From Escherichia coli (GTDB taxonomy: Bacteria > Pseudomonadota > Gammaproteobacteria > Enterobacterales > Enterobacteriaceae): a stretch of 64,000 nucleotides of DNA. The translations under genes were made by a program, and so were the position numbers. Of this stretch, positions 18,037-40,781 are shown piece by piece. Within the stretch, counting starts at the first letter, position 1; every line of letters starts with the position of its first letter. Where the stretch lies: assembly GCF_048403405.1 (NCBI RefSeq), contig NZ_CP183129.1; one strand, given 5' to 3'. Below the pieces are notes generated by a model. That model saw only the letters and a list, made by a program, of their open reading frames with translations, made no database searches and was not told the origin of the DNA.

Positions 18037-18528
18037 TCACGCTTTATTTTTGATTTGCTGCTCACGGTGAGCGATCTTCGTACTACGCGCCGCCAGCCAC
18101 AGGCCGCTGTTTTTCATTGCGTAACCAAATATCAACCCGAGCGCCAGCGAAGGTAACACCAGTTTCCAGTCACCCTGCCCGGCAAACGTCGCGCATGCGC
18201 CTATAAACGTTCCCGGAACAAATGAAAGCAGCAGCTGTTTGGCCTGAATACACATCAGAAACGCGACAATACCGGTTATGACATAACCGAGAATTTCCAG
18301 ATGTGGTGCCAGTGCACTACCGTAAATAATGACCATCGCCCACACCACGCCACTAAGCAGGGTTGCAGCGGAGATCGCCAGCCCTTTCAGCCCACCTTGC
18401 GGGCAGGCAAAGTAGGCCGTACAGCCCAGGAAGCCCGCCCAGCTTAGTAAGCCCAGGGAAACAGCCACCCATCCCCAGATACCGGAGAGAATGCCTGTTG
18501 TGATTGCAATAGAGAGAAGTATGTTCAT
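18037..18528 (-). CDS. ycdZ: Inner membrane protein YcdZ (DUF1097), 163 aa
   Basis: Track ORF 179 aa; start at MNILLSIAITTGILSG gives 163 aa; hydrophobic. Confidence 0.85.
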   Translation of the reverse strand: MNILLSIAITTGILSGIWGWVAVSLGLLSWAGFLGCTAYFACPQGGLKGLAISAATLLSGVVWAMVIIYGSALAPHLEILGYVITGIVAFLMCIQAKQLLLSFVPGTFIGACATFAGQGDWKLVLPSLALGLIFGYAMKNSGLWLAARSTKIAHREQQIKNKA

Positions 18529-18629
18529 GCCGCGCATGATAGCAGAAAACGCGGCCATGAATGAGATCGAGCACACATTTTATGCAACGGCAAATTATCT
18601 GTTGCAGTTATGAGTGATGCAGATCACAT

Positions 18630-19184
18630 TTACTCTTCAGAATCTTCTTCCAGCTCGTCCCACATTGCACTAATGGCATCGCGGGTTAGCGGTGCCATGG
18701 TGCGCCAGAAAGGCGTGGTTGCATGAGCCTCCACTTTGCCGAGGAACGCACCACACCAGGGTAACAGATACTCACTGAACAGTGTTTCCAGTGCTTCGCT
18801 CTCATCTTCCGTTGACTGATCTTCCAGCCAGGAAGCCGCGAGCAGCAATGTGCCGATGTGATCGGCTGGCGTATCCGCTAATGGCATCCCCCGTTCGGAA
18901 AGAAAAGCGCGCACTTCCGCTTCCGTCGCGCCCTCAACCCATGCGCTACGATATGGCGGCACAGCACATTCATCGCCGATAAACAACGCATTGTAATCGG
19001 CAGAGACTTGCGTCATATCACAGCTTTTCTGCAAACGTGTCAGCAACTCATCCTGCTCCAGTGGCCAGTTCGCAGCCAGTTTCCCCTCACGAATCAGGGT
19101 AAACAGCGGCACCAGTAAAGGATCTTGTGGTTGGCGGTAATAGAGCGAACCCAGCACACGACAGAGGATAGAAAACTCGTTCAT
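18630..19184 (-). CDS. ycdY: TorD-family redox enzyme maturation chaperone YcdY, 184 aa
   Basis: 184-aa ORF matching recalled YcdY; adjacent to ycdX. Confidence 0.88.
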   Translation of the reverse strand: MNEFSILCRVLGSLYYRQPQDPLLVPLFTLIREGKLAANWPLEQDELLTRLQKSCDMTQVSADYNALFIGDECAVPPYRSAWVEGATEAEVRAFLSERGMPLADTPADHIGTLLLAASWLEDQSTEDESEALETLFSEYLLPWCGAFLGKVEAHATTPFWRTMAPLTRDAISAMWDELEEDSEE

Positions 19185-34887: not shown

Positions 34888-36396
<1,509 letters not shown>

Positions 36397-36818
36397 CTAA
36401 AGTCTCCAAAAAATTATTATCGGCAATGTCGAAACTTGCCGTTATATCTGCCACCGGAACGGGGTAACAGAGTTTATGTTTTACCAGGGCGACCGTATCC
36501 TGCCGGAAGCGCCGGTTATTCACAATCGATTTAACACACCATTTACATTAAATTTTAGTGCTCAGCGACACTATTTTTCATCAGGTTGCACTCTCTCACA
36601 TTTTTTGCGGTTGCACCTTTCAAAAATGTTAACTGCCGCAGAGAAAAAGTCTGAGTTATTTTTTTAATCCCTGTCATATCGATTTCTTTTATTAACATTT
36701 CATTCATTTTTAAGCTTGCTACGCAGGTCACATTTAACATGGTTGCACAAAGTTGCAACATCATGGATATTTCACGATAACGTTAAGTTGCACCTTTCAG
36801 AACAACAGGAGTAATGGC
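36397..36818. promoter_or_regulatory. put control region between divergent putP and putA with GTTGCA PutA operator motifs
   Basis: Repeated GTTGCA motifs read at ~36586, ~36612, ~36739-36752 (inverted pair gttgcacaaagttgcaac) and ~36784. Confidence 0.75.
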
Positions 36819-39800
36819 ATGGGAACCACCACCATGGGGGTTAAGCTGGACGACGCGACGCGTGAGCGTATTAAGTCTGCCGCGACACGTATCGATCGCA
36901 CGCCACACTGGTTAATTAAGCAGGCGATTTTTTCTTATCTTGAACAACTGGAAAACAGCGATACTCTTCCGGAGCTACCTGCGCTGCTTTCTGGCGCTGC
37001 CAATGAGAGCGATGAAGCACCGACTCCGGCAGAGGAACCACACCAGCCTTTCCTCGACTTTGCCGAGCAAATTTTGCCCCAGTCGGTTTCCCGCGCCGCG
37101 ATCACCGCTGCCTATCGCCGTCCGGAAACCGAAGCGGTTTCGATGCTGCTGGAACAAGCCCGCCTGCCGCAGCCAGTTGCTGAACAGGCGCATAAACTGG
37201 CATATCAACTGGCCGATAAACTGCGTAATCAAAAAAATGCCAGTGGTCGCGCAGGTATGGTCCAGGGGTTATTGCAGGAGTTTTCGCTGTCATCGCAGGA
37301 AGGCGTGGCGCTGATGTGTCTGGCAGAAGCGTTGTTGCGTATTCCCGACAAAGCCACCCGTGATGCGTTAATTCGCGACAAAATCAGCAACGGTAACTGG
37401 CAGTCACACATTGGTCGTAGCCCGTCGTTGTTTGTTAATGCCGCCACCTGGGGGCTGCTGTTTACTGGCAAACTGGTTTCCACCCATAACGAAGCCAGCC
37501 TCTCCCGCTCGCTGAACCGCATTATCGGTAAGAGCGGTGAACCGCTGATCCGCAAAGGTGTGGATATGGCGATGCGCCTGATGGGCGAGCAGTTCGTCAC
37601 TGGCGAAACCATCGCGGAAGCGTTAGCCAATGCCCGCAAGCTGGAAGAGAAAGGTTTCCGTTACTCCTACGATATGCTGGGCGAAGCCGCGCTGACCGCC
37701 GCAGATGCACAGGCGTATATGGTTTCCTATCAACAGGCGATTCACGCTATTGGTAAAGCGTCCAATGGTCGTGGCATCTATGAAGGTCCGGGCATTTCAA
37801 TAAAGCTGTCGGCGCTGCATCCGCGTTACAGCCGCGCCCAGTATGACCGGGTAATGGAAGAGCTTTACCCACGTCTGAAATCACTCACCCTGCTGGCGCG
37901 TCAGTACGATATTGGTATTAACATCGATGCCGAAGAGGCCGATCGTCTGGAGATCTCCCTCGATCTGCTGGAAAAACTCTGTTTCGAGCCGGAACTGGCA
38001 GGCTGGAACGGCATCGGTTTTGTTATTCAGGCTTATCAAAAACGCTGTCCGTTGGTGATTGATTATCTGATTGATCTCGCCACCCGCAGCCGTCGCCGTC
38101 TGATGATTCGCCTGGTGAAAGGCGCGTACTGGGATAGTGAAATCAAGCGTGCACAGATGGACGGCCTTGAAGGTTATCCGGTTTATACCCGCAAGGTGTA
38201 TACCGACGTTTCATATCTCGCCTGTGCGAAAAAGCTGCTGGCGGTGCCGAATCTAATCTACCCGCAGTTCGCAACGCATAACGCCCATACGCTGGCGGCA
38301 ATTTATCAACTGGCGGGTCAGAACTACTACCCGGGTCAGTACGAGTTCCAGTGCCTGCACGGTATGGGCGAGCCACTGTATGAGCAGGTCACCGGGAAAG
38401 TTGCCGACGGCAAACTTAACCGTCCGTGTCGTATTTATGCTCCTGTCGGTACACATGAAACGCTGCTGGCGTATCTGGTGCGTCGCCTGCTGGAAAACGG
38501 TGCTAACACCTCGTTTGTTAACCGTATTGCTGACACCTCTTTGCCACTGGATGAACTGGTCGCCGATCCGGTCACTGCTGTAGAAAAACTGGCGCAACAG
38601 GAAGGGCAAACTGGATTACCGCATCCGAAAATTCCCCTGCCGCGCGATCTTTACGGTCACGGGCGCGACAACTCGGCAGGGCTGGATCTCGCTAACGAAC
38701 ACCGTCTGGCCTCGCTCTCTTCTGCCCTGCTCAATAGTGCACTGCAAAAATGGCAGGCCTTGCCAATGCTGGAACAACCGGTCACGGCTGGTGAGATGTC
38801 GCCCGTTATTAACCCGGCAGAGCCGAAAGATATTGTGGGCTATGTGCGCGAAGCCACGCCGAGTGAAGTAGAACAGGCGCTGGAAAGTGCGGTTAATAAC
38901 GCACCAATCTGGTTTGCCACGCCTCCGGCTGAACGCGCGGCAATTTTGCATCGCGCTGCCGTGCTGATGGAAAGCCAGATGCAGCAACTGATTGGTATTC
39001 TGGTGCGTGAGGCCGGAAAAACCTTCAGTAACGCCATTGCCGAAGTGCGCGAAGCGGTCGATTTTCTCCACTACTACGCCGGACAGGTGCGGGATGATTT
39101 CGCTAACGAAACCCACCGTCCATTAGGGCCTGTGGTATGTATCAGTCCGTGGAACTTCCCGCTGGCGATTTTCACCGGGCAGATCGCCGCCGCACTGGCG
39201 GCAGGTAACAGCGTGCTGGCAAAACCGGCAGAACAAACGCCGCTGATTGCCGCGCAAGGGATCGCAATTTTGCTGGAAGCGGGTGTACCACCAGGCGTGG
39301 TGCAATTGCTGCCAGGTCAGGGGGAAACCGTGGGCGCGCAACTGACGGGTGATGATCGCGTGCGCGGGGTGATGTTTACCGGTTCAACCGAAGTCGCTAC
39401 GTTACTGCAACGCAATATCGCCAGCCGCCTGGACGCTCAGGGTCGCCCTATTCCGCTCATCGCGGAAACCGGCGGCATGAACGCGATGATTGTCGATTCT
39501 TCAGCACTGACCGAACAAGTCGTAATAGATGTGCTGGCCTCGGCGTTCGACAGTGCGGGTCAGCGTTGTTCGGCACTGCGCGTGCTGTGCCTGCAAGATG
39601 AGATTGCCGACCACACGTTGAAAATGCTGCGCGGCGCAATGGCCGAATGCCGGATGGGTAATCCGGGTCGCCTGACCACCGATATCGGTCCGGTGATTGA
39701 TAGCGAAGCGAAAGCCAATATTGAGCGTCATATTCAGACTATGCGTAGTAAAGGCCGTCCGGTGTTCCAGGCGGTGCGGGAAAACAGTGAAGATGCCCGT

Positions 39801-40781
39801 GAATGGCAAAGCGGCACCTTTGTCGCGCCGACGCTTATCGAACTGGATGATTTTGCCGAATTGCAAAAAGAGGTCTTTGGTCCGGTGCTGCATGTGGTGC
39901 GTTATAACCGTAACCAGCTGCCGGAGCTGATCGAGCAGATTAACGCTTCCGGTTATGGTCTGACGCTTGGCGTCCATACGCGCATTGATGAAACCATCGC
40001 CCAGGTCACTGGCTCGGCCCATGTCGGTAACCTGTACGTTAACCGTAATATGGTGGGCGCAGTGGTCGGGGTGCAGCCATTCGGCGGCGAAGGGTTGTCC
40101 GGCACCGGGCCGAAAGCAGGCGGTCCGCTCTATCTCTACCGTCTGCTGGCGAATCGCCCGGAAAGTGCACTGGCAGTGACGCTCGCGCGTCAGGATGCAG
40201 AGTATCCGGTCGATGCGCAGTTGAAAGCCGCATTGACTCAGCCGCTAAATGCACTGCGGGAATGGGCGGCAAACCGTCCAGAATTGCAGGCGTTATGTAC
40301 GCAATATGGCGAGCTGGCGCAGGCAGGAACACAACGATTGCTGCCAGGGCCGACGGGTGAACGCAACACCTGGACGCTGCTGCCGCGTGAGCGCGTGTTG
40401 TGTATTGCGGATGATGAGCAGGATGCGCTGACTCAGCTCGCCGCCGTGCTGGCGGTGGGCAGCCAGGTGCTGTGGCCGGATGACGCGCTGCATCGTCAGT
40501 TAGTGAAGGCATTGCCATCGGCAGTCAGCGAACGTATTCAACTGGCGAAAGCGGAAAATATAACCGCTCAACCGTTTGATGCGGTGATCTTCCACGGTGA
40601 TTCGGATCAGCTTCGCGTATTGTGTGAAGCAGTTGCCGCGCGGGATGGCGCAATTGTTTCGGTGCAGGGTTTTGCCCGTGGCGAAAGCAATATCCTGCTG
40701 GAACGGCTGTATATCGAGCGTTCGCTGAGTGTGAATACCGCTGCCGCTGGCGGTAACGCCAGTTTAATGACGATCGGTTAA
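36819..40781 (+). CDS. putA: Bifunctional proline dehydrogenase / P5C dehydrogenase and transcriptional repressor PutA, 1320 aa
   Basis: Track ORF 1342 aa; start at MGTTTMGVKLDDATRERIKSAA (ribbon-helix-helix DNA-binding N-terminus) gives 1320 aa. Confidence 0.95.
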   Translation: MGTTTMGVKLDDATRERIKSAATRIDRTPHWLIKQAIFSYLEQLENSDTLPELPALLSGAANESDEAPTPAEEPHQPFLDFAEQILPQSVSRAAITAAYRRPETEAVSMLLEQARLPQPVAEQAHKLAYQLADKLRNQKNASGRAGMVQGLLQEFSLSSQEGVALMCLAEALLRIPDKATRDALIRDKISNGNWQSHIGRSPSLFVNAATWGLLFTGKLVSTHNEASLSRSLNRIIGKSGEPLIRKGVDMAMRLMGEQFVTGETIAEALANARKLEEKGFRYSYDMLGEAALTAADAQAYMVSYQQAIHAIGKASNGRGIYEGPGISIKLSALHPRYSRAQYDRVMEELYPRLKSLTLLARQYDIGINIDAEEADRLEISLDLLEKLCFEPELAGWNGIGFVIQAYQKRCPLVIDYLIDLATRSRRRLMIRLVKGAYWDSEIKRAQMDGLEGYPVYTRKVYTDVSYLACAKKLLAVPNLIYPQFATHNAHTLAAIYQLAGQNYYPGQYEFQCLHGMGEPLYEQVTGKVADGKLNRPCRIYAPVGTHETLLAYLVRRLLENGANTSFVNRIADTSLPLDELVADPVTAVEKLAQQEGQTGLPHPKIPLPRDLYGHGRDNSAGLDLANEHRLASLSSALLNSALQKWQALPMLEQPVTAGEMSPVINPAEPKDIVGYVREATPSEVEQALESAVNNAPIWFATPPAERAAILHRAAVLMESQMQQLIGILVREAGKTFSNAIAEVREAVDFLHYYAGQVRDDFANETHRPLGPVVCISPWNFPLAIFTGQIAAALAAGNSVLAKPAEQTPLIAAQGIAILLEAGVPPGVVQLLPGQGETVGAQLTGDDRVRGVMFTGSTEVATLLQRNIASRLDAQGRPIPLIAETGGMNAMIVDSSALTEQVVIDVLASAFDSAGQRCSALRVLCLQDEIADHTLKMLRGAMAECRMGNPGRLTTDIGPVIDSEAKANIERHIQTMRSKGRPVFQAVRENSEDAREWQSGTFVAPTLIELDDFAELQKEVFGPVLHVVRYNRNQLPELIEQINASGYGLTLGVHTRIDETIAQVTGSAHVGNLYVNRNMVGAVVGVQPFGGEGLSGTGPKAGGPLYLYRLLANRPESALAVTLARQDAEYPVDAQLKAALTQPLNALREWAANRPELQALCTQYGELAQAGTQRLLPGPTGERNTWTLLPRERVLCIADDEQDALTQLAAVLAVGSQVLWPDDALHRQLVKALPSAVSERIQLAKAENITAQPFDAVIFHGDSDQLRVLCEAVAARDGAIVSVQGFARGESNILLERLYIERSLSVNTAAAGGNASLMTIG

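Follow-up and report, generated by a model that had tools for sequence, protein, structure and literature searches.

The GTTGCA repeats of the Escherichia coli put control region very probably represent the five PutA operators and lie beside candidate RNA hairpins of the putP leader

We examined the 422-bp gap between the divergent genes putP and putA (the put control region, positions 36397-36818) within the whole 64-kb stretch of DNA that was analysed, hereafter the window. The gap contains five exact copies of GTTGCA on the plus strand, starting at 36585, 36610, 36742, 36752 and 36787, and these are almost certainly the five sites at which PutA controls the put regulon of E. coli. The identification follows from the density of the motif (six matches on the two strands, where about 0.3 were expected), from the identity of the region with that of K-12, from the cognate PutA encoded next to it, from a match to the 2RBF operator consensus, from genomic SELEX and from the footprint. 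PutA operators between putP and putA were already known, and their presence here is ordinary; to our knowledge, only the E. coli-specific operator 5 and the hairpins in the putP leader go beyond what has been published.

The put control region is bordered on one side by putP (34888-36396, minus strand), which encodes a sodium/proline symporter of 502 aa and was recognised by its ORF, by the NCBIfam PutP equivalog NF011948 (1143 bits) and by the RefSeq annotation of an identical locus. On the other side lies putA (36819-40781, plus strand), whose product of 1320 aa matched the NCBIfam model NF008772 over residues 1-1320 (2659 bits) as the trifunctional repressor, proline dehydrogenase and P5C dehydrogenase. 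Residues 1-52 of PutA (36819-36974, plus strand) correspond to the ribbon-helix-helix DNA-binding domain, according to matches with the PDB structures 2RBF, 2GPE and 2AY0 (E about 1e-31). The gene order in an identical E. coli record is efeUOB-putP-putA-rutR-rutA, and the G+C content of the put control region is 38.9%, compared with 49.6% in the window. Of the 5426 complete E. coli genomes, 5412 contain the region with a coverage of at least 80%, its best matches being at least 99% identical in 5330 records; the window is thus a piece of an E. coli chromosome. Among the 5428 matches to the region, seven fell on records labelled as plasmid instead of chromosome.

All five operators were placed on the plus strand. 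Operator 1 (36585-36590) is the putP-proximal one, its sequence is the same in K-12, and it is separated by 25 bp from operator 2 (36610-36615). Operator 3 (36742-36747) is followed, 10 bp further on, by operator 4 (36752-36759), which is the palindrome GTTGCAAC and scores on both strands. Operator 5 (36787-36792) has the context taaGTTGCACctttca and precedes the putA ATG by 32 nt. From operator 1 to operator 5, the contexts read aGGTTGCACtc, cGGTTGCACct, tGGTTGCACaa, aaaGTTGCAAca and taaGTTGCACct. Operators 1-3 have the 8-mer GGTTGCAC in common, which occurs only twice more in the 64 kb, and operators 2 and 5 share an identical 13-mer, GTTGCACCTTTCA (36610-36622 and 36787-36799), an identity that base 36799 lengthens in this strain from the 12 bases of K-12.

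A preliminary description of this DNA, made from the letters alone, had reported multiple GTTGCA motifs between the putP and putA starts, including a closely spaced inverted pair, and had matched them to the known autoregulatory architecture. The multiple motifs are indeed there, five on the plus strand and a sixth on the minus strand (36754-36759), the latter because the fourth copy is palindromic. The inverted pair was seen as well, as GTTGCA-N6-TGCAAC at 36742-36759, composed of 36742-36747 and the palindrome at 36752-36759. The same bases also form a direct tandem, GTTGCA-N4-GTTGCA, with 10 bp from start to start, and it is this direct tandem that is kept across species. As for the architecture, the identity with K-12, the 2RBF consensus and the adjoining trifunctional PutA all agree with it.

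Alignment with the K-12 reference (MG1655, NC_000913 1078883-1079304), which the same description had proposed as a check, gave 419 identical positions out of 422 and no altered motif: the three substitutions, at 36513, 36726 and 36799, are all outside the motifs. The PutA operator consensus of 2RBF has been tabulated as cGGTTGCACc (PMC4655474). This string is found at 36607-36616 of the window, that is, in operator 2. We take operator 2 to be the DNA that was co-crystallised with PutA52. Zhou et al. 2008 (J Mol Biol 381:174) reportedly described five operators, each with a GTTGCA, of which three were critical for putA and the other two for putP; a 9-bp contact is reported for their crystal of operator 2, and a lower affinity for the flanks of operator 4. 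The layout observed here, with two sites nearer putP and three adjoining putA, agrees with that split. When purified PutA was used for genomic SELEX, the K-12 genome showed one peak only, located in the putA/putP spacer (PMC8249747).

In K-12, both genes are repressed by PutA bound to the put control DNA, and proline lifts this repression (PMC5879082); the protein is on the operators at low proline and on the membrane at high proline (PMC5879082, PMC5293562). In that strain, with scarce proline, cytoplasmic PutA occupies the operators and both divergent genes are repressed; once proline has reduced the FAD cofactor, PutA goes to the membrane and off the DNA, and both genes are expressed. In this protein family, the N-terminal parts of the PutA dimer make up a single ribbon-helix-helix fold, which uses its beta-sheet to recognise GTTGCA and its flanks in the major groove.

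We then compared the operators across species. The N-terminal 500 residues of PutA served as query in a scan of species-representative genomes, and the 80 loci obtained belong to Enterobacterales, Pseudomonas, Cupriavidus and Ralstonia, with no Salmonella locus among them. The putP gene was adjacent and divergent in 74 out of the 80 put loci, and in these 74 the density of GTTGCA was 10.8 per kb in the intergenic sequence and 0.62 per kb over the 443 kb of flanks, a 17-fold enrichment. For a closer comparison, 18 Enterobacteriaceae intergenic sequences were aligned (that of the window, that of the representative E. coli genome and those of 16 further genomes), with a mean column identity of 57%. 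The 18-mer GGTTGCACAAAGTTGCAAC, which comprises operators 3 and 4, was invariant in all 18 sequences; operator 1 was exact in 17 and operator 2 in 15 of them. Operator 5 was exact only in the two E. coli sequences of the alignment and was not found in E. albertii or in the 15 other Enterobacteriaceae genomes compared; conservation thus lends no support to its importance. At the corresponding position E. albertii has GCTATA, and it retains the downstream ACCTTT. The tandem at 10-bp spacing recurred in most of the Pseudomonas loci, at about -88/-78, and was also present in the Cupriavidus and Ralstonia loci. Among E. coli strains, all six GTTGCA matches were retained in two of the most divergent ones sampled (98.8% identity, and one with an indel).

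A rearranged region was observed in E. coli EC22 (NZ_CM169479.1; 2288-3152 of the extracted locus), where an IS1 lies beside a truncated pgaB and meets the put region at query position 271. Through the IS1 and a deletion, this strain lacks putP, operators 1 and 2 and the genes that separate pga from put; operators 3-5 and putA are kept.

On the putA side, a candidate -10 hexamer, GATATT, was located at 36766-36771 (plus strand), 17 bp after the TTGCAC of operator 3, and the G, A, T, A and final T of this GATAnT are invariant in the 18 sequences. The TTGCAC of operator 3 is thus likely to serve as the putA -35 element. The consensus promoter scan did not call this candidate putA promoter, because its -35 matches the consensus at just three of the six positions. 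With GATAnT placed 17 bp past TTGCAC, operators 3 and 4, one helical turn apart, would cover the -35 element and the spacer of the putative promoter, and operator 5 would sit just downstream of the predicted putA start, at about +9 to +14.

This arrangement bears on another reading of the repeats, namely that they are promoter elements and not operators, either sigma-54 -24/-12 boxes or sigma-70 -35-like hexamers. We consider it very improbable. TTGCA is the core of the sigma-54 -12 box, and TGGCAC-N5-TTGCA resembles the TTGCAC-N4-TTGCA found here; however, the tandem lacks one base of spacing relative to the fixed GG-N10-GC, the GG is absent (TG in the tandem), and a search with TGGCAC-N5-TTGCA allowing up to 3 mismatches gave no match on the tandem and only background-level matches elsewhere in the region. 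Regarding sigma-70, operator 3 probably doubles as the putA -35, as 17 bp separate its TTGCAC from the invariant GATATT downstream, but five one-strand copies over 200 bp do not make a promoter, and the solved PutA-DNA contacts are to the GTTGCA sequence (2RBF). Binding of PutA to operators, one of which probably overlaps a promoter element, remains the preferred reading.

On the putP side, transcription starts have been published at -137, -95/-94 and -13/-17 (PMC2760140), which map to about 36533, 36491/36490 and 36409/36413 in the window. Operators 1 and 2 are at -52 to -82 relative to the putP P1 start, i.e. upstream of the core P1 promoter, and for this reason occlusion alone fails to explain the repression of putP by PutA bound there. 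We also noted a conserved TTGTGA (36525->36520) and a conserved CAGGAT (36502->36497), both on the minus strand and 17 bp apart, which fit a -35/-10 pair for the putP P4 start (-95/-94). The second of these conserved blocks, the one with CAGGAT, also contains UUCCGG, the hexamer of the hairpin 1 loop described below. For the putP strand, the promoter scan returned one sigma-70-like site (-10 TAAAAT, 36557->36552), which was set aside as a poor fit to the published P1 start, and two terminator-like matches from the same scan were judged not credible.

Part of the operator region is annotated as coding. The small ORF ymdG, of 40 aa as first reported (36555-36677, minus strand), overlaps operators 1 and 2, and the RefSeq annotation of K-12 ymdG covers just its last 8 codons (36555-36581). 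In the same frame, PGAP annotates a 'hypothetical protein' of 69 aa (36555-36764, minus strand) that spans operators 1-4 and of which ymdG is the C-terminal part. Conservation of the repeats could accordingly be due to coding constraint on YmdG or on the 69-aa ORF, and not to DNA binding, a reading that finds some ground in the PGAP CDS itself and in the detection of SPA-tagged YmdG in K-12 (PMC6001520). We give it almost no credence: in E. albertii and all the other genera compared, the frame is broken by stops or frameshifts, yet the GTTGCA blocks within it are invariant, and the ORF has no protein family match. An intact ORF with synonymous-site variation was not seen across the genera. The apparently conserved residues of the 69-aa ORF are operator DNA read as codons, and the PGAP 'hypothetical protein' is probably not a conserved gene.

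The frequency of the motif was evaluated against background. The window overall is ordinary, with 53 GTTGCA against 56 +/- 8 in shuffles, and the put control region stands out from it: chance would place 0.31-0.36 matches in its 422 bp, and 6 were counted (Poisson P(>=6) = 9.8e-7), six matches were attained in 1 of 20,000 first-order Markov simulations of 422 bp, and no other 422-nt stretch of the window has more than 4 copies. The notion that the cluster arose by chance in intergenic DNA rich in A+T draws on the lack of enrichment in the window as a whole and on a second stretch with 4 copies, yet a P of about 1e-6, the retention of four of the five sites where the surroundings have diverged to 57% column identity, and the 17-fold enrichment across the 74 loci leave it next to no probability, and the conservation data refute it.

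That second-densest cluster lies at 18362-18723 and includes an inverted pair, TGCAAC-N12-GTTGCA (18583-18606), within a 53-bp gap between two minus-strand ORFs. It is probably a chance cluster, since genomic SELEX of PutA gave no target beyond the put spacer.

Besides the operators, we detected two possible RNA hairpins in the putP leader. Hairpin 1 (36447-36471, minus strand) has a stem of 8-9 bp and a 7-nt loop, N-CGUUCC, with an invariant CGUUCCGG, which corresponds to CCGGAACG on the plus strand (36454-36461). It was identified by covariation in 23 Enterobacterales sequences: the arms around the invariant CCGGAACG vary between species yet remain complementary, with 84.5% of cells pairing and 58 cells changed on both sides. 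Shuffles gave 20.7 +/- 4 such double-sided cells, and slid controls no more than 20. In Yersinia aldovae, the variant CGUUCCGA has a closing pair that is changed compensatorily and retains CGUUCC. RNAalifold recovered hairpin 1 independently, a covariance model of it found one copy in the 64-kb window as well as the Y. aldovae variant, and a search of Rfam with 36300-36900 gave no match at E <= 1 on either strand. A conserved uORF running through hairpin 1 was ruled out by an in-frame stop in the stem in E. albertii.

Hairpin 2 (36421-36441, minus strand; CGGCAA...UUGCCG) has changes on both sides in all 6 of its pairs and is deleted in 3 genera. An in vivo 3' end has been mapped by Term-seq in K-12 at 1079260(+), not scored as Rho-dependent and 45 nt before putP (PMC7815308, supplementary file 3). 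It corresponds to position 36441 of the window, six bases past hairpin 1 and between the two hairpins. On the antisense strand of hairpin 1, 80.7% of cells pair, compared with 84.5% in the putP sense; this better pairing, together with the Term-seq 3' end on the putP-sense strand, is suggestive, but not decisive, for a hairpin on the putP-sense strand.

The loop of hairpin 1 led us to the small RNA GcvB, whose nt 11-18 are CCGGAACG, the exact complement of the invariant CGUUCCGG; the chance of such an 8-mer match in 206 nt is about 0.003. Moreover, the segment 36451->36438, just after hairpin 1, can form 14 contiguous pairs with the R1 seed of GcvB (nt 77-90). A prediction of duplexes between the whole-length GcvB and the putP leader was discarded, as it returned meaningless full-length duplexes, and a windowed estimate was used instead. 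Corrected for accessibility, this estimate ranked the R1 pairing (-5.1 kcal/mol) above the pairing of the GcvB 5' end with the loop (-3.2 kcal/mol), and nt 11-13 of GcvB are predicted to be internally paired. Predicted energies of -5.1 to -3.2 kcal/mol are too weak to decide on a pairing between GcvB and putP. Salmonella microarrays, as they are cited in PMC9299463, have GcvB regulating putP through the R1 region. We consider the pairing of GcvB with the putP leader a lead and not a result.

If this lead holds, putP would be under two controls, one exerted on the DNA by PutA and one on the RNA by GcvB or another factor reading the loop. We propose only tentatively, and regard as rather unlikely, that the put region also carries an undescribed post-transcriptional element, hairpin 1, and that operator 5 is a recent E. 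coli-specific addition tightening the autorepression of putA.

Little is gained from the finding of the operators itself, which is the textbook autoregulatory circuit again in another E. coli strain; it does indicate that a reading free of annotation is able to recover that circuit. The operator set can be described as a deeply conserved core, the tandem next to putA, to which the species-specific operator 5 is added, and this bears on the evolution of the strength of PutA repression. Should the leader hairpins be functional, proline uptake would also be controlled at the RNA level, and the hairpins might explain the microarray hint that GcvB regulates putP.

The closest known system is the put control region of K-12, at the same locus and with the same length (422 bp), 99.3% identical, with the five GTTGCA and their immediate flanks unchanged and the same repressor encoded alongside. 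In other Enterobacteriaceae, putP and putA are likewise divergent, the invariant GGTTGCACAAAGTTGCAAC lies about 50-130 bp before putA, as here, and a pair of sites 25 bp apart is found nearer putP, as in E. coli; these species have four sites versus the five described here, the -32 site being exact only in E. coli. The genetics of the put control region have been studied in Salmonella. More distantly, the PutA of Pseudomonas putida, which has GTTGCA operators too, has a homologous ribbon-helix-helix domain (E 2e-20; PDB 2JXG/2JXH/2JXI), and most of the Pseudomonas loci share the tandem GTTGCA-N4-GTTGCA, at about -88/-78 before putA, whereas the distal sites differ (e.g. -311+, -268-, -245+) and the rest of the intergenic sequence is unrelated. 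Similar tandem operators are those of MetJ, Arc and CopG, short sites about one helical turn apart that are read by a two-stranded beta-sheet, and structures of the CopG family were the next PDB matches to the N-terminus of PutA. Unlike these repressors, PutA carries its DNA-binding domain on an enzyme of 1320 residues, and its switch is the redox state of the flavin together with membrane binding, and not a small co-repressor.
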